From Escherichia coli (GTDB lineage Bacteria; Pseudomonadota; Gammaproteobacteria; Enterobacterales; Enterobacteriaceae), in NCBI RefSeq assembly GCF_050320075.1, contig NZ_CP190018.1: a stretch of 64,000 nt of DNA. The stretch is one strand, 5' to 3'. Under the pieces are notes generated by a model. The model saw only the letters and a program-made list of their open reading frames with translations. It was not told the origin of the DNA and searched no databases. Position numbers and translations under genes: made by a program. This document shows positions 853 to 61,432 of this stretch, one piece after another; positions within the stretch are counted from its first letter, which is position 1, and the number at the start of each line of letters is the position of its first letter.

Positions 853-4243
<3,391 letters not shown>

Positions 4244-13138: not shown

Positions 13139-14128
13139 TTAGCCGCCAATGTACGATAAGTTTTGCGTAATACCGGTGTTGTTTTGATGCAGGAAATGGG
13201 TCTGTTTCTTCTCCCGCAGCGCCGCTGAAATACGCGCTTCCAGCGCCTGTTGCTGGGTATCGTCTTCCAGCAGATCGCGCAGGTTAACGCCGCCTTCACC
13301 AAACAGGCAGAGATGGAGTTTACCAATGGAGGAAACGCGCAGGCGGTTGCAAGTGGCGCAGAAGTCTTTTTCATACGGCATGATAAGGCCAATCTCTCCG
13401 GCGTAATCCGGATGACAAAAGACTTGCGCGGGACCGTCGCTGCGTTGACGTAATTGGTGGATCCAGCCGCGACGCAGTAGCTCGTCACGCAGAACCTGAC
13501 CAGAGATGTGATGCTTACGGAAGAGCTCGCTGCCCTCACCCGTTTCCATCAATTCGATGAAACGCAGCTGGATAGGGCGATGCTGGATCCAGTTCAGAAA
13601 GGTGTCGAGCTGATGATGATTAACATCACGCATCAGCACGGTATTGACTTTGACCTTTTCAAAACCGGCCTCAAATGCGGCATCGATCCCTGCCATGACC
13701 TGGTTGAATTTATCCTGCCCGGTAATGGCATGAAACTGGTGAGCGTCAAGGCTATCAACGCTGACGTTGATGCCAGTAAGTCCAGCATCGCGCCAGTTCG
13801 CCACATCGCGTTCCAGACGGTAACCATTGGTGGTGACCGCAATCTGGCGGATAGCGTCGTTTTCCCGCACAGCGGCGATGATATCGGTAAAGTCGCGGCG
13901 TAAAGACGGCTCACCACCTGTCAGACGGACTTTTTCGGTGCCAAGACTGGCGAAGGCGCGCGTAACCCGGCGAATTTCATCGACGGTAAGAAAGCCTTTA
14001 TTGGTGACGCCGCTCGGTTTGTAGCCATCCGGCAGGCAGTAGGTGCAACGAAAGTTACACACATCGGTAATCGACAGGCGCAAGTAGTAAAACTTACGCG
14101 CAAATGCATCAGTCAGTTGTGAAGCCAT
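13139..14128 (-). CDS. moaA: GTP 3',8-cyclase MoaA (radical SAM)
   Basis: 329-aa product from [33 protein letters not shown] with the CxxxCxxC radical-SAM motif. Confidence 0.95.
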
Positions 14129-14290
14129 GTACACCTTTCCAGATACGGGAGGCGAAGTCATTTCTTCCTTCGCCCTGGTGGCAATCTTTACGAGCATTGT
14201 CACGGCCAAAGCACCGTATCAGTTGACCCAGGTGCAGAGGCTAGAGTGTTTAGTGGTTAAGCCGATACTAGCGTGTAAATGAGATTTTTA
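14129..14290 (-). promoter_or_regulatory. moaA 5' leader; expected position of the molybdenum-cofactor (Moco) riboswitch and moa promoter
   Basis: Placement from established knowledge of the E. coli moaA leader; secondary structure not verified by me. Confidence 0.4.
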
Positions 14291-53045: not shown

Positions 53046-53627
53046 TCATGTCTTTTCTAAAAAAAATCTTGATGAATATTGATGGGGAGGAACACCAAAA
53101 TATCTTCTGAAAACACTTACAAAATATGACGTGTTTTCATAACCGCATATCTCAGCAACTTTTCCAACAGAATATAAATTGTAGCTTAATAACCTTTCCG
53201 CCATCACCATTCGCTCTTCAAGAATTAACTTACTAAATGATAAGCCTTCGTGCTTTAATTTTCTTTTTAACAGACTTTCACTCAGATACAGTCTTGAAGA
53301 TATATCACAAAGTCTCCATGCTGCAGATATATCCGTGTGAATAATAGCCTTAACTTTACTTCCTAAACTATTAAGACATCCAAATAAAAAACTTTGCACT
53401 ATTTTCTCTGAAGATAAGATAGCAAGACATGCAAGTGATATTTGATTTCTAACAAAATCCACAGTTCTGCCATCACAATTCAAGCATGCAATCAAGTTCT
53501 TTAACAATGAAAAATCTTCACATTCCACCATCAAGTATGCCGGATAAAACCTTCTTACAGAAAAAGGTGAGAGTGTGTTGCTTTTAAAGAAATCATTAAC
53601 TGTTTTCTCTTCAACATCTACGATCAT
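53046..53627 (-). CDS. short AraC/XylS-family transcriptional regulator (cargo between Q and S)
   Basis: 193 aa; C-terminal AraC-type HTH (VGKVAEICGYENTSYFVSVFRRYFGVPPHQY); very AT-rich gene and 500-bp AT-rich upstream region. Confidence 0.75.
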   Translation of the reverse strand: MIVDVEEKTVNDFFKSNTLSPFSVRRFYPAYLMVECEDFSLLKNLIACLNCDGRTVDFVRNQISLACLAILSSEKIVQSFLFGCLNSLGSKVKAIIHTDISAAWRLCDISSRLYLSESLLKRKLKHEGLSFSKLILEERMVMAERLLSYNLYSVGKVAEICGYENTSYFVSVFRRYFGVPPHQYSSRFFLEKT

Positions 53628-54121
53628 TGCATGATCTATATTTGATGAAAAAAATCTTTTAAATTTTAATCAATGAGAACAGCACTTCCTTTTTTAAATA
53701 AAATATCTTCTTTACCAATTCGGACATCAAACGAGTTCAACACCAAAATGATAGAACATATGTATGGCATATTATCCACCTGATATCATTGGGGTTACAC
53801 CAAGTAAGTATAGGTGGAAAATCAATATTCGCCAGTTCAACAATAAGGAAAATCTCATTGCATCACAAGTATAAAATTATGTATTTAACTCACAAAGACA
53901 AATTATTAAACCAATCTGTTATATTATATATAGCTGCGTGGAATCATAATATTATATATTTTGACTGGCATGTTTACCAACTTTAAGTTGCATCTCAATG
54001 GTTTCTTCAGCGTAAACAGAGTTTTTATACAAACTGACACTCTGGGTATCATAGTGTAGTTTTTACGATTGTAAATATCCTGCATGCAGGAACTCATCCT
54101 TTTGGATGATATCGCATACAA

Positions 54122-55081
54122 TTAATTTACCATCAGTCTTAGAGCCAGTTCGTCCGGATAGGGATCGAAGTAATTCTGTGTAAGCAAGTAATCATTAGGA
54201 TACTCACCCAGATAATGCTTCAGCAGAGTCAACGGCGCAAGAAGAGGTAATGTGCCAGAACGATAGTTAAGTATAACCTCGCTCAACTCTTTACGCTGGC
54301 GTGTACTTAAGTAGTTACTAAAATACCCCTGTATATGCATCATCACATTCGTGTGATTTTTACGTGATGCAGGTTTTCTGAGAATCGCCATCAGCTTATC
54401 ACGATACACCTCAAAGTATGATTCAAGGTCCGCCCACTCGTGTATTGCAGCCACAAATGGTCCCATATCTTTATAGCCTGCCTGACTATGCGCCAACAAC
54501 TGAAGCTTATAACGACTATGAAAAGCTAATAACTCTCTTCTTGATAATTTCTCCTTGTAAAGGTGATTGAGCTCATGCAAAGCAAAAACTCTTTCAACAA
54601 AATTCTCACGAAGCACTGGATCATGTAATCGCCCATCCTCTTCAACCGGTAGCCAGGAAAACTTTTCCATCAAAGTGCTCGTAAATAGTCCCACTCCATC
54701 TTTACGACCTCGATTACCATTTTCATCATAGACACGCACGCGCTCCATGCCACAGCTGGGAGATTTAGCACAAACCACAAACCCCGATACATCCTTTAAT
54801 TTGTCCATATAAGAACGACTAAACTCTGTCATTCTCTCTGTCACATCCTCATTCTGGTCGTGGCTGAAACACATCCGTATATTTCCTTGCGTCGAGCGCA
54901 CAAGACGTAGAGCAGGACGCGGAACTGGCAGCCCTATAGCCATTTCCGGACATACTGGTCTGAATGTTACCCATTCCACTAATTTGTCCATTAAAAAGTC
55001 AGCTCTTTTGTGACCACCATCAAAACGAACAGCAGAACCGGCCAGACAACCGCTGATTCCAATCACAGGTTTTTTTATCAT
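54122..55081 (-). CDS. DUF523 (TudS-like) / DUF1722 (YbgA-like) fusion protein
   Basis: 319 aa; N-terminus IGISGCLAGSAVRFDGGHK plus conserved Cys (CPEM, CAKSPSCGMERVRVY) resembles DUF523; C-terminal half resembles DUF1722; assignment from memory of family signatures. Confidence 0.6.
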   Translation of the reverse strand: MIKKPVIGISGCLAGSAVRFDGGHKRADFLMDKLVEWVTFRPVCPEMAIGLPVPRPALRLVRSTQGNIRMCFSHDQNEDVTERMTEFSRSYMDKLKDVSGFVVCAKSPSCGMERVRVYDENGNRGRKDGVGLFTSTLMEKFSWLPVEEDGRLHDPVLRENFVERVFALHELNHLYKEKLSRRELLAFHSRYKLQLLAHSQAGYKDMGPFVAAIHEWADLESYFEVYRDKLMAILRKPASRKNHTNVMMHIQGYFSNYLSTRQRKELSEVILNYRSGTLPLLAPLTLLKHYLGEYPNDYLLTQNYFDPYPDELALRLMVN

Positions 55082-55273
55082 ATCCTCCCCCTTGACTAAT
55101 TCATTAACACATAAACTGTGTAGTGCACGGAATAAATTGCCTTTCTGGCGTCATCACTGACAATTTTTCTGTTATGGACTATTCCTAATATAGTATGAAA
55201 GTTCTTTAAGTGATCGGTCGTAATCATCTATCTTTCATACTTACTCTCAACTATCAAAAGTACAGGATTTATT

Positions 55274-55798
55274 ATGAAGTTATGGCCTGTGTTGACTGGC
55301 ATTGCACTCTCTTTCACTCTTATAGCATGTAAGGCCCCGACACCACCTAAAGGTGTGCAGCCGATTACAAATTTTGACGCCAACCGCTACCTCGGAAAGT
55401 GGTATGAAATAGCTCGCCTCGAGAACCGGTTCGAACGTGGTCTGGAACAGGTCAGCGCTACTTATGGAAAACGGAACGACGGAGGGATTCGTGTACTTAA
55501 CCGTGGATACGATCCAACGAAAAATAAATGGAGCGAGAGCGAAGGTAAAGCATACTTTACTGGAGATACTAAAACTGCAGCGTTGAAGGTTTCGTTTTTT
55601 GGCCCCTTCTATGGTGGCTATAATGTAATCAAACTGGATGATGAGTATAAGTATGCTCTTGTCAGTGGTCCGAACAGAGAATACCTATGGATTCTGGCAA
55701 GGACCCCAACTATTCCAGATAAAGTAAAAGCAGACTATGTGCGAACCGCTCAAAAGTTGGGATTCAATGTCAATGAATTATTATGGGTTAAACAATAA
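55274..55798 (+). CDS. outer-membrane lipocalin, Blc-like lipoprotein
   Basis: 174 aa; lipobox LIAC, then NFDANRYLGKWYEIARLENRFERGLEQVSATY...KAYFTGDTKTAALKVSFFGPFYGGYNVI very similar to E. coli Blc; on the strand opposite to late genes. Confidence 0.85.
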   Translation: MKLWPVLTGIALSFTLIACKAPTPPKGVQPITNFDANRYLGKWYEIARLENRFERGLEQVSATYGKRNDGGIRVLNRGYDPTKNKWSESEGKAYFTGDTKTAALKVSFFGPFYGGYNVIKLDDEYKYALVSGPNREYLWILARTPTIPDKVKADYVRTAQKLGFNVNELLWVKQ

Positions 55799-55835
55799 AA
55801 TCCCTACCCGAAATAATACTTATTAGAATAAATAT

Positions 55836-55860
55836 CCTCCGGCATAGCCGGAGGTTTTTC
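55836..55860 (+). terminator. rho-independent terminator after the blc-like gene
   Basis: cctccggcatagccggagg followed by tttttc. Confidence 0.7.
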
Positions 55861-55869
55861 AAATGCGCC

Positions 55870-56570
55870 TATAAGGCTCTCTTACCAGCCGCGCCCTAAC
55901 AGGCGCACACGATCTGACATTTGCATCCAACTTCGTTACTTACGGCCCGTAAACGGGCTGCCCGGATAGGGAATCGATAACTGCTCTCCCATTTTATCCT
56001 CTTCAAGCTGGTGCTTTATGTAGTCCTGTATCTTCGCCGTGTTCTTACCCACCGTATCGACATAGTACCCTCGGCACCAGAACTCCCTGTTTCTGTATTT
56101 GAATTTCAAATCCCCAAACTGCTCGTAAAGCATCAGACTGCTTTTCCCTTTCAGATATCCCATAAAGCCGGATACGCTCATTTTGGGTGGGATTTCCACA
56201 AGCATATGGATATGATCTGCGCAGCACTCTGCTTCCAGAATCCGTACGCTTTTCCACTCACACAGCTTTCTCAAAATACTGCCTATCGCCCTACGCTTCT
56301 CTCCGTAAAACGCCAGTCTTCGGTATTTCGGCGCAAAAACTATGTGATATTTACAGTTCCAGCGGGTGTGCACTAAGCTCTTTTCGTCCCCCATTGGGAC
56401 CCCCTTTTGATTTCTTGTTTGACACTTGCAGTTGCCAGACCGCAAGGTGTTTTAACAAATCAAAAGGGGTTTTAATAACTGGCTCAAAGCTGAAAGCTTT
56501 CCGGAACCCCCAGCCTAGCTGGGGGTTTTCTGTGCACAAAAAAACCAGCCTTTGGGGAGGCTGGCTAAAT
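55870..56570 (-). mobile_element. IS200/IS605-family (IS200-like) insertion sequence; boundaries approximate
   Basis: HuH Y1 transposase gene flanked by subterminal hairpins (gcccgtaaacgggc at 55937-55950; cccccagcctagctggggg at 56508-56527; ccagcctttggggaggctgg at 56546-56565). Confidence 0.75.
55936..56394 (-). CDS. tnpA: IS200-family transposase TnpA (Y1 HuH)
   Basis: 152-aa product from MGDEKSLVHTRWNCKYHIVFAPKYRR with HxH motif (DHIHMLVEIPP) and catalytic Tyr region (RGYYVDTVG). Confidence 0.9.
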   Translation of the reverse strand: MGDEKSLVHTRWNCKYHIVFAPKYRRLAFYGEKRRAIGSILRKLCEWKSVRILEAECCADHIHMLVEIPPKMSVSGFMGYLKGKSSLMLYEQFGDLKFKYRNREFWCRGYYVDTVGKNTAKIQDYIKHQLEEDKMGEQLSIPYPGSPFTGRK

Positions 56571-56664
56571 CAGGAAACAAGCTGTTATATGATAATAACT
56601 ACGTTGCGATTCCAACATTTAAAATGTTAGACTAATGAGAATCAGACAGCAACTTTTCCTTTAA

Positions 56665-57057
56665 TTATTTCGAACAATCAGCATCCATCTCCAATCGGAG
56701 ATCCAACACCATCAGCATACCCTCCACTACGCCCTCAGCTTTCTGGAGCATCCTGCCAACCCAACAATCAGATCGCCCATGCTTACGTGCAAGCGCCATA
56801 AAAGTCATGCCGCCGACATAATAGTCCACCAATAAATCATGCAAATCGCTGTTGTTCTTTTTCAGACGGGCCATGCACCCGCAAATGATCATCGCGTCAT
56901 CGTCACAACATTGTGGGCGAGATTTTACTTTTGAAGGAATTAATCCCTTAAAACCGGCGGCAATGGACGACCAGGTCACATCTTCATGATTATTAGCCGC
57001 CCACGCTCCCCAACGCTCAAGAACCATCTGAATATCACGCATCAACTTACTCCACAA
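56665..57057 (-). CDS. Q: late gene antiterminator Q (QuuD-like)
   Basis: About 125-130 aa, [62 protein letters not shown] matches DLP12 QuuD; true start probably the internal Met at 57042. Confidence 0.88.
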
Positions 57058-57127
57058 AACTCAGACCAGAACGCCAATTACAAGCAAAAATCAACAAAAC
57101 AGTATTAGTTGATTGTTATCTCTGACT

Positions 57128-57268
57128 TCATACTCCTGCTCCTGTCAGGGTTTTGGCGTAATTCTTCAGTATTCGGTAATCGGTCAAAACAGAACCAGGG
57201 AAACGATATAAGCGCAGGCGCATCCAGCGGTGGCGAAGAAGTTCTGCCATATAAAACTCAAACATCAT
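57128..57268 (-). CDS. ylcG: small protein YlcG (below the ORF-track size cut-off)
   Basis: Manual translation: [46 protein letters not shown] (46 aa); ATGA overlap with rusA stop. Confidence 0.8.
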
Positions 57269-57627
57269 TCATCTCCCTGTTCAGTGATGGTCAGTTCCAG
57301 CTTTCCACCTTTGACAACCGGCATCTTCACAACGCGGTAATCAACGACCTGAGCATCATCCAACCAGAAACCTGCTTTGGTGAGTGCGTCAAAAGCGGCC
57401 TTTTGTAGATTATCCAGGTCACGGCGACGGCGATCCGGCATGTGACACTCAATGCGGATTTTCACAGGCATAGCCAGGCCGATATCCAGCATTGCGTTTT
57501 TAATGATTCGGGCGACGTTTTCGCGGTATGCCTGCCCCTCTGCGCTGATGTGCGTGCGCCCGCGATTATGGCGGTAATAGCGATTATTGCTCGGCGGCCA
57601 GGGTAATGTGATATTGTAGGTATTCAC
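57265..57627 (-). CDS. rusA: Holliday-junction resolvase RusA
   Basis: 120 aa, [73 protein letters not shown]. Confidence 0.95.
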
Positions 57628-57914
57628 GCCTTAATTACCCCCTCTTTCAGCCAGATAACCTGCGTTCTCGCCATACCTTCCAGCGCGCATTCTTTTGCAT
57701 ATCCAGCGTCAACAAAATGCGTGCGACGGTCGATCTCGTCGTGACAGGCAGAACATGCAATGGTGGCAATCAGGTCTGGCGGTTTGATACCGGTACCGCA
57801 CAATCCAGCCAGCCGGATATGTGCCAGTACAGACGTTTCAGGATTGCCATTACATACGCCAGGGATTCTTACCTGGCATTCCCGACCACGCGCTGCTTTT
57901 CTCAAATCAGCCAT
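57624..57914 (-). CDS. ybcO: YbcO-like protein (DUF1364, putative nuclease)
   Basis: ORF 57624..57953; 96-aa product from [40 protein letters not shown], preceded by aggagg. Confidence 0.88.
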
Positions 57915-58077
57915 GATTCCTCCTTGCTGCCAGTCGCAACCATTTTTTATCAACCAGGCTGGCGGTATATCCGAGCAGTGTTGGTATTTCGGATGGTTTC
58001 AGCTCAGGCCTACGCTTACGACGATTTGGTACTTTGTAGATGTGTCCGTTCATGACACGAATAAGCGGTGTAGCCAT
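57907..58077 (-). CDS. ninE: NinE-like small basic protein (below the ORF-track size cut-off)
   Basis: Manual translation: [56 protein letters not shown] (56 aa); TAATG overlap with ninB stop and ATGGCTGA overlap with ybcO start. Confidence 0.8.
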   Translation of the reverse strand: MATPLIRVMNGHIYKVPNRRKRRPELKPSEIPTLLGYTASLVDKKWLRLAARRNHG

Positions 58078-58532
58078 TACGCCTCCTGCTTATCACGCAG
58101 CAGCTGGAACTCGCAGCTCTGCGGAATAGTCAGGTGGCAGCCAATATTCATCGCCCAGGCTTCAACCTTACACAGGAAGACATACATCTCTCCGGTATCA
58201 AGGTCGGAGGTATGGCGTAACGACTGGATAGTGGTGATATCACCGGTTACGACATCAACCAGGTCTTTGGTTTCATAACCGAGATATGTGTGTTTGAGAG
58301 CATCTTTTACCCAAGCTGGAGTGGCGAACGTTTTACCCCTGCTGATGAGGTATTCACTGATTTCGCTGTACCACATGTGGCTGAGTGCATTCTGGGAAAG
58401 ACTGCGTCTCTCGCGCCACGGTTTAAGCACCATGCGAAAGCATTTGCCGTCCTCCAGATAAGGCTGGATCTGCCGACCGATAGCGGTGAAGTTACCGCGA
58501 TGTAATTTGATGCCATCTTGTGGGAGGTTCAC
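58077..58532 (-). CDS. ninB: NinB-family recombination protein (YbcN-like)
   Basis: 151 aa, [62 protein letters not shown]. Confidence 0.88.
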
Positions 58533-58726
58533 GCTTCACCTCCGCAGAGGTCAAACGTTGGATGCAAAGAATCGCAGGTGCATTTCTGCATCTGTGAAGA
58601 GAGAAGAGAGTTTAGATTGTATGTGCGCATAAACGTCCCCGTTTAGCGCAGAAGTCACCGGAGTTGTTCAGGCTCCAATGGCATGATTATGGCTGGTTGA
58701 TTATTGGAAATCAAATGTGCTGAAAA

Positions 58727-59236
58727 TTAGTCTGCCAAGTCTTCCTCAGTCGCAACTGGGTAATTCCAAATATCAAAAAAAGCTATAGCCTCCTGCCATT
58801 TGCTCCATAAGTTATCAAGTACTTGTGTAGGTTCCGTACTTTTAAAAACAGAATCAGCCGCATCACCGTTATGAACTTCCTCGTACAGTTCCATTATTAG
58901 CAGATTAACAAAGTACTGTTTCAACATTAATGCCTGATTACCTTCTTTCTGCTGGCTATCCTGCTTGATGATCTCCATCGCCCGTACTAGGCACCTGATG
59001 ATATCCGCTGCATCATTAACGCTCCATTCAGATCCGCGCTTATCTTTAGCTGATGAATTGGCTCTCTCAGCGCAAGCCTTTAAAGACTCATAAAGGTAAA
59101 CTCTATTTTGTAGCTGCAGCGCTTTTTTTGACGTGTACCAACTTGCAAGCGCCGACCCCGCTGCGGCTAATGTGCCAAACGCAGAAATACCTGCTGCTAT
59201 TGCACTTAAGTCGGCACTGTCAAAGTTCCACATCAT
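58727..59236 (-). CDS. hypothetical membrane-anchored protein (cargo between ninB and ybcK)
   Basis: 169 aa; N-terminal hydrophobic segment LSAIAAGISAFGTLAAAGSALASWY then soluble helical domain; AT-rich; no family recognised. Confidence 0.55.
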   Translation of the reverse strand: MMWNFDSADLSAIAAGISAFGTLAAAGSALASWYTSKKALQLQNRVYLYESLKACAERANSSAKDKRGSEWSVNDAADIIRCLVRAMEIIKQDSQQKEGNQALMLKQYFVNLLIMELYEEVHNGDAADSVFKSTEPTQVLDNLWSKWQEAIAFFDIWNYPVATEEDLAD

Positions 59237-59905
59237 CGTTACACCTTATATAAATACCCCTCAGTAATATCCAATAAGGTATGTGCACAATCAATATAAT
59301 TTTATCCGTATCGGCACATAGCGATTTGAAGGCTACTGGTAATAGTATATTTTAGATTATATCGTCCAGTTTACAGCACCCGTATTTTATGAAATGGACT
59401 CGCATATTACCCAAAAAATGCCAGCACTTCCGTCATCGTAGAATGCTGGCAGTATTTCTAACTAGTGACTTTATTGGAACAGATTCTGACGGAAATATGG
59501 TAACACTCGACTCCACTTATCATCCAGCCACGGCTGGAATTTTACATGTGCCGTTTATCTGGCGAGGATTGCTCGCGCTCTGTTGAGTATCTGGGGATAT
59601 TCATGCTCGATAGAAGTAAAGCGGCCGGCTTCGCGGTGCTCCGCAACCTGAAGTAGTGGAGTAACGTTCTGGCAGGCAGTTAACATCACATCACCTGCTC
59701 GCCATAACCAAGCACGTGCACAAAGTTTGTTATCAGTGAATTGTTTTGTGATTGGGTATTGTTGAACTGCTAGAACGAGAACGCCAGCATCCATTGGCAG
59801 TCCCTATAGTAAAACCATAGCTCAGGACGCTTCGTTCAGGATAGATAATTTTATTGTACTTACCTAACTTTCTTACTATAGCACGGTTGAAAAAGTGATT
59901 ATTAC

Positions 59906-61432
59906 TCAAAAATAAACCTCACCATCAACCATATATTTGAGAGTACTTATCGCCTGCTGGGCGGATATTATTTTCATTAAAGGATAGTGTTTAAAAACAA
60001 TGCCATTCATAAAATAGATATCACAGGTTTTATTATCTGTATTGATTATGATTTTTTCGAATGTTTTATAGGCAAGTGTACGACATAGCTCTCGCCCATT
60101 TTTACTGGTTAAGTCAATAGCATGAAAATCACCAAGTGAACTCACCGCTTTACTCTTCAAAGTTTTTAATGATACAGAAGCCCTTCGTAATTCCTTATCT
60201 AATACTCTGATTTTTTCTGCTATAGCGGTAACTTCAGGCGCAACAGATAATGCAGCAATTAAATTATTAATTTTCATCTGGAGCTCAATAATTTTCAACT
60301 CTAAAGTTTCATTAGCATCTTTCTTGTTTTCAACTGGTTGGATTTTACTACAATTAAAAAGCAACTCATTAATGATATTATAATCAACCAAATCTCTCTT
60401 TATTGATGGCCTGTCACATCGATGCAGTCTTCTCATCGGACAAACATAATAGCCATGCAAACTTCCAGATACCGCATGAACAATCATGGTATTACCACAA
60501 GCCTCGCACTTCATAACTGTTCGAAGTAGATTTATCAACATAGGATTTTTGCTACTATTGCTAATACCAAAAGGTGCCAACCGAATTTCCTGCACAGCGT
60601 AAAACAAATCATCTGATATGACTCTGGGATAATAGCCAGCGATTTCACTTATTCCTTTACCTCTTGCACGATATGAAGGTACGCATATACCTATCAGAGC
60701 TTTATTCGCTAATAATTTTTCAATTACAGAAGGTCCCCATGCACTTTCTTTTCCTGAGAAATTCTTTACAGCATGATCATTTAAATACTTGGCTATTGCA
60801 TTCAATGAGCGCCTTTCCATCCTGAGTTTAAAAATTAGCTCAATAGTTTTCACCCTGTCGGGGTCTGGAACAAAAGCCGTTCTTTTGTCATCCAATGAGA
60901 GCCATCTCGGACAAGACGCCGTCATAATCGTGCCTGACTCCAGTGCATCCTGCCGTTTTTTCTTCCATGATAATTTAACCCGACTTGACTTTATCTCGCT
61001 TTCTTCATTTGCCCTTTGTGCTATAAGTATGGCTTTTATTAATGAATATGGCTCATTCAATGAGTCAATATTATAGACTGTATTATCGCAAAGAGTTATA
61101 ACATCAATACCGTGATTCAAAATCAATTTCAGACGCTCAATCGCTTCACCGACTTTTTCTCTTGAAAGTCTGTCCAGACTTTCAACTAACAATGTAGTCC
61201 CTGGCAATATATAACCATGTTCTATAGCATCTAAAAATTCCGAAAAAGCTCCTGATTGTGCATGCTTTCCATTGAATGCGCTTAACCCCAAATCTTCATA
61301 CGTTACGGTATCAAGGTAATAATCACTATTTACCTTTAGCCATTCAGTAATAAGCCTTCTCTGGCGGTTTAATGAATCACCAGACATCTGACCTGGTGAT
61401 GAAAATCGCATATATGCTATGGCTTTTTTCAT
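59906..61432 (-). CDS. ybcK: large serine recombinase (YbcK-like)
   Basis: 508 aa; N-terminal resolvase/invertase catalytic domain (MKKAIAYMRFSSPGQ...SLNRQ), central recombinase domain and Cys-rich zinc-ribbon region (CEACGN...CPMRRLHRC). Confidence 0.88.
   Translation of the reverse strand: MKKAIAYMRFSSPGQMSGDSLNRQRRLITEWLKVNSDYYLDTVTYEDLGLSAFNGKHAQSGAFSEFLDAIEHGYILPGTTLLVESLDRLSREKVGEAIERLKLILNHGIDVITLCDNTVYNIDSLNEPYSLIKAILIAQRANEESEIKSSRVKLSWKKKRQDALESGTIMTASCPRWLSLDDKRTAFVPDPDRVKTIELIFKLRMERRSLNAIAKYLNDHAVKNFSGKESAWGPSVIEKLLANKALIGICVPSYRARGKGISEIAGYYPRVISDDLFYAVQEIRLAPFGISNSSKNPMLINLLRTVMKCEACGNTMIVHAVSGSLHGYYVCPMRRLHRCDRPSIKRDLVDYNIINELLFNCSKIQPVENKKDANETLELKIIELQMKINNLIAALSVAPEVTAIAEKIRVLDKELRRASVSLKTLKSKAVSSLGDFHAIDLTSKNGRELCRTLAYKTFEKIIINTDNKTCDIYFMNGIVFKHYPLMKIISAQQAISTLKYMVDGEVYF

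Follow-up and report, generated by a model that had tools for sequence, protein, structure and literature searches.

Gene chain ahead of Q and its known counterparts

The window, a 64,000-nt stretch of Escherichia coli DNA, holds a complete-looking lambdoid prophage on its minus strand. The replication genes of this prophage are at 62387..63981, and genes for lysis, terminase, and tail follow downstream. We read positions 55800..59400 directly and listed the ORFs. The genes of the chain that ends at Q are given below, 5′ to 3′ on the minus strand, together with the junctions and ribosome-binding sites of its two smallest well-conserved members.

58529..58630, minus strand: ylcH (orf33), 33 aa
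58077..58532, minus strand: ybcN, 151 aa, GTG start, 278 bits against NCBIfam PRK09741
58082..58087, minus strand: Shine-Dalgarno sequence AGGAGG of ninE, 4 nt 5′ of the ninE ATG, within ybcN
58075..58079, minus strand: ybcN/ninE junction TAATG, a 1-nt overlap in which one A is common to the ninE ATG and the ybcN TAA
57907..58077, minus strand: ninE, 56 aa, from sequence reading and family profiles
57907..57914, minus strand: ninE/ybcO junction ATGGCTGA, an 8-nt overlap with the ybcO ATG inside the end of ninE
57624..57914, minus strand: ybcO, 96 aa, putative HNH-type nuclease (DUF1364), Pfam YbcO E = 1.7e-42
57265..57627, minus strand: rusA, Holliday junction resolvase, 120 aa, GTG start, Pfam RusA E = 2.1e-22
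57273..57278, minus strand: Shine-Dalgarno-like sequence AGGGAG of ylcG, 4 nt 5′ of the ylcG ATG, within rusA
57265..57268, minus strand: rusA/ylcG junction ATGA, a 4-nt overlap with the ylcG ATG over the rusA TGA
57128..57268, minus strand: ylcG, 46 aa, the final nin gene ahead of Q
56665..57042, minus strand: Q antiterminator gene (QuuD/PF06530 type), 125 aa from the ATG, Pfam Phage_antitermQ E = 2.5e-51

The rusA product also scored 275.9 bits against NCBIfam, and that of ybcO matched phrog_131, an HNH endonuclease family. The ylcH/ybcN and ybcO/rusA junctions both read GTGA, with the GTG start of the downstream gene lying over the stop of the upstream one, and AAGGAGG stands 4 nt 5′ of the ybcO ATG. 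Five of the six consecutive junctions between ylcH and Q are overlaps; at the last link, an 85-nt gap between ylcG and Q breaks the chain in this prophage. An earlier, sequence-only reading had translated ylcG and ninE by hand, and its coordinates and sizes (46 and 56 aa) are correct base for base, as are the gene order and the ATGA and TAATG overlaps that it described. Both of the sub-60-aa genes that it placed in the chain were found, but a third frame of this size, ylcH, had been left out. The gene that it called ninB is properly ybcN: the product stayed below the Pfam NinB cutoff (20.6 bits; cutoff, 23.8) but matched the NinB/Orf family phrog_72 (E = 3.8e-52). YbcN is biochemically Orf-like (PMC4118853) and is a very distant member of the Orf/NinB family of recombination mediators.

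Many E. coli chromosomes match the 2-kb segment 56600..58600 at 100% identity, and on them RefSeq lists ybcN, ninE, ybcO, rusA, ylcG, and Q; an E. coli record of the same DNA names the products of ylcG and ninE WP_000971071.1 and WP_000224911.1, respectively. Of 5426 complete E. coli genomes, 3545 carry its 1-kb core, and YlcG and NinE, encoded in about two thirds of such genomes, would be cheap targets for small-protein studies. In K-12, the cryptic prophage DLP12 has the chain ylcH-ybcN-ninE-ybcO-rusA-ylcG-quuD (b4588, b0547-b0551, b4509), which has the same gene order and lengths as that of the window, matches it at each of the five overlapping junctions, keeps the 85-nt space between ylcG and Q, and is 96.1% identical in nucleotide sequence over 1.5 kb. 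YlcG of DLP12 differs at 2 of 46 residues (Y6N and M16G) and NinE at 3 of 56 (K15R, R23K, and N54S). The flanks are unlike: the window has an IS200 after Q and a serine-recombinase/SMR segment before ylcH, whereas K-12 has nmpC (split by IS5) after quuD and ybcM before ylcH.

Phage 82 (X92588) has the same six genes at 95.8% identity to the window, recorded as orf33, orf151, orf56, orf96, rus, and orf45, each with an annotated ribosome-binding site and followed by Q. Here, orf45 is the counterpart of ylcG, and the record describes orf56 as kin of lambda nin60 (ninE). The phage 82 Q is a different gene, of the PF06323 type and 229 aa long, with an ATG that overlaps the orf45 stop. Because the homology of phage 82 to the window stops about 10 nt short of the end of ylcG, this alignment places a mosaic boundary between the nin and Q modules at the 3′ end of ylcG. 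In lambda, ninR (ninB to ninI) is a run of small genes in the same position, between the replication genes and Q, and by its annotation all nine nin-region junctions, from P via ren and ninB-ninI to Q, overlap. Kroger and Hobom reportedly described the lambda nin region in 1982 as a "chain of interlinked genes." Lambda has no YlcG and carries NinG/Rap in place of RusA; its NinE, of 60 aa, has a different N-terminal half but has its C-terminal motif in common with the NinE of the window.

Both small genes were thus already known, having been sequenced and annotated in the 1990s in the nin module of DLP12 and phage 82. The claim that annotation from ORFs alone would overlook them is true of a naive 60-aa threshold, but not of RefSeq/PGAP, the K-12 annotation, or the 1996 phage 82 record, all of which list the two. 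The value of the observation lies in annotation hygiene: real phage genes are concealed by an ORF threshold of 60 aa.

Coding status of the small frames

An ORF of 46 or 56 aa is, on its own, within chance expectation; a 6-kb segment yielded 78 ORFs of 25 aa or more, and among them were spurious antisense ones of 99, 112, and 172 aa. We judged ylcG and ninE to be beyond chance because of their conservation and not because of their mere existence. For this comparison, 12 divergent loci were taken together with the phage 82 and lambda records, and 10 homologues per gene were compared; five further E. coli loci were fetched beyond the 10 detailed loci. Searches of phage genomes with tblastn gave matches in 73 records for YlcG and in 53 for NinE, and the homologues of both come from phages of Escherichia, Klebsiella, Salmonella, Enterobacter, and Cronobacter at 46-67% amino acid identity, with values down to 46-66% in the last four of these genera.

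YlcG scored 78.6 bits against the NCBIfam model NF033498 (YlcG_phage_expr; cutoff, 30; E = 2e-22), with residues 3-41 aligned to positions 1-39 of 41, and NinE scored 138.4 bits against NF007245 (PRK09689; cutoff, 88; E = 5e-41) over residues 1-56 of 56. Both also matched PHROG families that have no assigned function, phrog_2705 for YlcG (E = 5.8e-22) and phrog_288 for NinE (E = 1.3e-34). A Pfam search gave no match for YlcG, for which Pfam has no model, and NinE reached 21.5 bits against PF05322, a lambda/P22-centered model with a cutoff of 25, over residues 18-53. Aligned with lambda NinE, the protein of the window showed 46% identity over the C-terminal 35 aa (E = 3e-6), which indicates a real kinship confined to the C-terminal half; by these comparisons, NinE of the window belongs to the DLP12/phage 82 subfamily type. 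The names assigned in the sequence-only reading are therefore borne out both by the NCBIfam cutoffs and by the 2 of 46 and 3 of 56 differences from K-12. That reading had also named disruption of the frames, or their absence from related prophages, as grounds for refutation; we looked for this, and both frames proved intact in every one of the 10 homologues.

Of the six frames of each gene, the annotated one alone was free of stops in 10 of 10 homologues. In the alternative frames, stops interrupted between 5 and 10 of the homologues, except that the −3 frame of ylcG had them in 3. Relative to the window, replacement differences amounted to 0.20-0.42 per site and silent sites were saturated at 0.60-0.87; the Jukes-Cantor (JC)-corrected dN/dS for divergent homologues was 0.16-0.36 for ylcG (0.28 against phage 82) and 0.15-0.23 for ninE (0.10 against phage 82). 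In a close set, made up of seven alleles from E. coli and phage 82 that are about 95% identical, pN/pS was 0.35 for ylcG and 0.19 for ninE, with values of 0.125, 0.127, and 0.165 for the flanking ybcN, ybcO, and rusA. The ylcG signal within E. coli is modest, with 17 variable columns distributed 2/7/8 by codon position. At the protein level, 12 YlcG residues are invariant, among them R12, R14, W15, L18, R19, G25, Y31-L34, and N36, and the protein has the motif RW.[RK]LR..R..G.....YRIL.N; NinE has a conserved block, S-D-I-P-T...Y-T-A...D..W.R..AR, as a C-terminal helix motif. We take the frames as real because of the family matches, the open frames, and the difference between saturated silent and constrained replacement sites, and the comparisons indicate that ylcG and ninE are genuine protein-coding genes under purifying selection.

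We weighed this against two readings in which the annotated frames are not genes. If ylcG and ninE were chance ORFs in a noncoding or regulatory region, the abundance of short ORFs, the lack of any Pfam match for YlcG, and the subthreshold Pfam score of NinE would be as expected. We give this reading practically no credence, given NCBIfam and PHROG E values from 2e-22 to 5e-41 and the retention of peptide motifs and open frames at 46-67% identity across five host genera with silent sites saturated; moreover, there is no space for noncoding spacers, because the neighbors overlap both ends. The other reading assigns the same DNA to real genes on the plus strand, where three longer ORFs are open in the window.

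57109..57408, plus strand: antisense ORF, 99 aa, opposite ylcG/rusA
57717..58055, plus strand: antisense ORF, 112 aa, opposite ybcO/ninE
57760..58278, plus strand: antisense ORF, 172 aa, opposite ninE/ybcN

Each of these is broken by stops in one to three of six relatives at ~95% identity, by which we reject them as genes. The antisense frames also have stops in 3-10 of 10 divergent homologues, and the ORFs are absent both from the RefSeq annotation of identical DNA and from that of K-12, so that this reading too is barely credible. A 60-aa ORF track would nevertheless display them in place of the true small genes.

The third small frame, ylcH, has an entry in the annotations of K-12 (b4588), phage 82, and strain 144. 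Its pN/pS in the close set was 0.77, with variable columns spread 8/9/9 over the codon positions, its ATG is lost in strain 2010C-3347, and a family-profile search including PHROG gave no match. A conserved core at 58573..58590 is a nucleotide block with the inverted repeat ATGCAGAAA-N11-TTTCTGCAT, which is perfect in HK225 and phi80, and the block folds to a hairpin (z, −1.9 to −3.7). The coding status of ylcH thus looks doubtful, and the core may be an RNA or DNA element, perhaps a tR2-like signal ahead of ybcN. A tidy overlap is therefore not proof of a gene, since ylcH overlaps its neighbor in the same way without a coding signature.

Junction conservation and probable translational coupling

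The two junctions have the geometry of coupled gene pairs, being same-strand ATGA and TAATG overlaps that are kept in relatives. In all 10 loci, ninE lies directly 3′ of ybcN/ninB, a synteny also recorded in PMC4118853, and overlaps the upstream gene, by 1 nt (TAATG or TGATG) in 6 of the 10 and by 4, 8, or 20 nt in the others. Its Shine-Dalgarno sequence is AGGAGG or GGAGGG in most homologues, and the equivalent site is annotated as the ribosome-binding site in phage 82. On the 5′ side of ylcG, the ATGA junction to the upstream resolvase gene (RusA or NinG) is kept in 10 of 10 loci; GGAGG lies 4-6 nt upstream of the start in 8 of these, phage 82 has GGGGA, and SPN3UB, among the 10 loci compared, showed no obvious Shine-Dalgarno sequence, with the overlap retained. 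Both small genes overlap the downstream neighbor in most loci.

We propose that the nin module is one delayed-early transcription unit, rightward in phage terms and leftward in the window, that leads from the replication genes to Q. A ribosome reaching the end of one gene would either start again at the overlapping start codon or expose the Shine-Dalgarno site of that start. The products of the ylcH-to-ylcG chain would then be synthesized in linked quantities from a single N-antiterminated message, which unbroken translation would shield from Rho-dependent polarity up to Q. Conservation of the junctions (ATGA in 10/10 and the ninE overlap in 10/10) speaks for coupling being under selection, and translational coupling of ninE and ylcG likely contributes. 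In lambda, CRISPRi roadblocks have a polar effect on Q wherever in the nin region they are placed, an effect rescued by Q in trans, and the nin genes are dispensable for plaque formation (PMC10695390); because the roadblocks are polar on Q, the nin region works as one transcription conduit to Q. It is highly probable that the region is the nin ("N-independence") module of a DLP12/phage 82-type lambdoid prophage and that ylcG and ninE are real, and the proposed mechanism is the most likely one.

A possible though unlikely alternative is that both genes are real but initiate independently from their own Shine-Dalgarno sites, the overlaps reflecting compaction of the genome and not a coupling device. 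In bacterial operons generally, no junction types are commoner than ATGA and TAATG overlaps. Good Shine-Dalgarno sites stand 4 nt upstream of both starts, and with strong autonomous sites (AGGAGG) the overlap is unnecessary for initiation; the length of the ninE overlap also varies among 1, 4, 8, and 20 nt. Compaction alone accounts less readily for an ATGA that is kept 5′ of ylcG in every locus despite two unrelated upstream families, RusA and NinG, for overlaps at 5 of 6 consecutive junctions here and 9 of 9 in lambda, or for SPN3UB ylcG, which has no recognizable Shine-Dalgarno sequence and keeps its overlap. The ylcG frame might also serve as a relay, in which translation rather than the peptide matters, bringing ribosomes to the Q start. 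Such a role would suit the overlap of the ylcG stop with the Q start in 8 of 10 loci and the presence of Q genes from three unrelated families (PF06530, PF06323, and PF03589) downstream. We nevertheless consider it very improbable: the peptide itself is conserved, with its 12 invariant residues and dN/dS of 0.16-0.36, and the 85-nt gap separates ylcG from Q in the window, K-12, and loci L018 and L019, all with a QuuD-type, PF06530-family Q, a related Q of 144 aa being found in L016. The broken ylcG-Q link of this prophage also counts against coupling along the whole chain.

Protein properties, expression, and neighboring features

Members of the YlcG family were defined as proteins of about 45-48 aa, encoded in a lambdoid phage or prophage directly between a junction resolvase gene and Q. 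The protein of the window has 46 aa and is encoded between rusA and Q, and the placement is equivalent in 10 of 10 loci. YlcG is basic (pI 10.3) and not hydrophobic (GRAVY, −0.06); the predicted model, built on a small alignment, has helices at residues 2-20 and 26-41 (pLDDT, 69.9; pTM, 0.32) and suggests, at low confidence, a basic two-helix hairpin. NinE is very basic (pI 11.6) and not hydrophobic (GRAVY, −0.64), and its model, likewise from a small alignment, is a mostly unstructured chain followed by a long basic helix (pLDDT, 68.5; pTM, 0.28), so that the protein looks like a disordered basic N-terminal part joined to a predicted amphipathic helix. Profile searches of the PDB sequence set gave no relative of either protein at E values up to 1, and PADLOC gave no defense-system match for YlcG, NinE, or the neighboring unknown ORFs. 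As a speculation from their composition and the low-confidence models, both peptides might bind nucleic acid or a partner protein of the recombination or late-switch machinery.

Two homologous frames that lack annotation in public phage records came up during the comparison. HK225 has a 45-aa YlcG homologue at about 2298..2435, between rusA and Q (locus L004), and Cronobacter phage ENT47670 has an 87-aa ORF at about 1048..1311 in which a CxxC...CxxC N-terminal part is joined to the NinE C-terminal motif (locus L014).

The gene immediately 5′ of Q is ylcG in the 10 loci and in the five further E. coli loci, and the Q genes that follow it fall into the following families.

PF06530: the window
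PF06323: phage 82, CobraSix, and RothC
PF03589: HK225, mEp237, Gifsy-2, SPN3UB, and Klebsiella phages

The ordinary reading of this placement is that ylcG is a module-boundary gene. We see only a slim chance that YlcG is a dedicated accessory of the late-gene switch, one that would tune how much Q is made, or when, through coupling or through binding to Q mRNA, to the qut region, or to RNA polymerase.

As for expression, the DLP12 operon is poorly expressed unless an insertion supplies a promoter (PMC4118853), and a scan of the operon for promoter and terminator consensus sequences gave no excess over shuffled sequence. In K-12, rusA-ylcG is reported to be a unit activated by HusR in stationary phase, with a HusR box upstream of it (PMC12844172), and the same paper, citing Hemm et al. 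(2008), describes stationary-phase induction of ylcG. The window has an exact copy of the HusR (YnfL) box CAGGTAAGAATCCCTG at 57860..57875 on the minus strand, within ybcO just past the ninE stop. Within rusA, at 57508..57523, is another box that has one mismatch. The reported stationary-phase expression of YlcG from the cryptic DLP12 could hint at a host-side role. In an ASKA overexpression screen, ylcG clones fell in the glycogen-deficient class (PMC2853380), and a full-text search for ylcG returned incidental mentions only.

Several further features of the prophage were noted. A copy of IS200 occupies 55833..56537, with tnpA at about 55936..56394 on the minus strand and Rfam STnc490 at 56404..56527. 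It sits a few bases past a terminator-like hairpin (56543..56566, minus strand), which is itself about 100 nt 3′ of the Q stop, at the place where a late-promoter terminator would be expected. Strain 144, otherwise identical, lacks the insertion, which may affect Q-dependent late transcription.

Between P and ylcH (58672..62398) lie a 169-aa ORF of phrog_1779 (58727..59236), a 508-aa large serine recombinase (59906..61432), and an SMR-family transporter (61688..62074); PADLOC gave no match for these three genes. At this site, strain 144 carries an inverse-autotransporter gene of 3.9 kb, and the P-ylcH interval is a variable cargo slot. From the lysis genes to Q, 53046..55798 holds a lipocalin gene (Blc-like, plus strand), a YbgA/2-thiouracil-desulfurase-like gene, and an AraC-type regulator, which also appear to be cargo; in strain 144, the annotation marks the AraC-type gene as frameshifted. 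The chromosomal portion of the window has a molybdenum cofactor riboswitch at 14116..14260 on the minus strand (Rfam RF01055, 103 bits).
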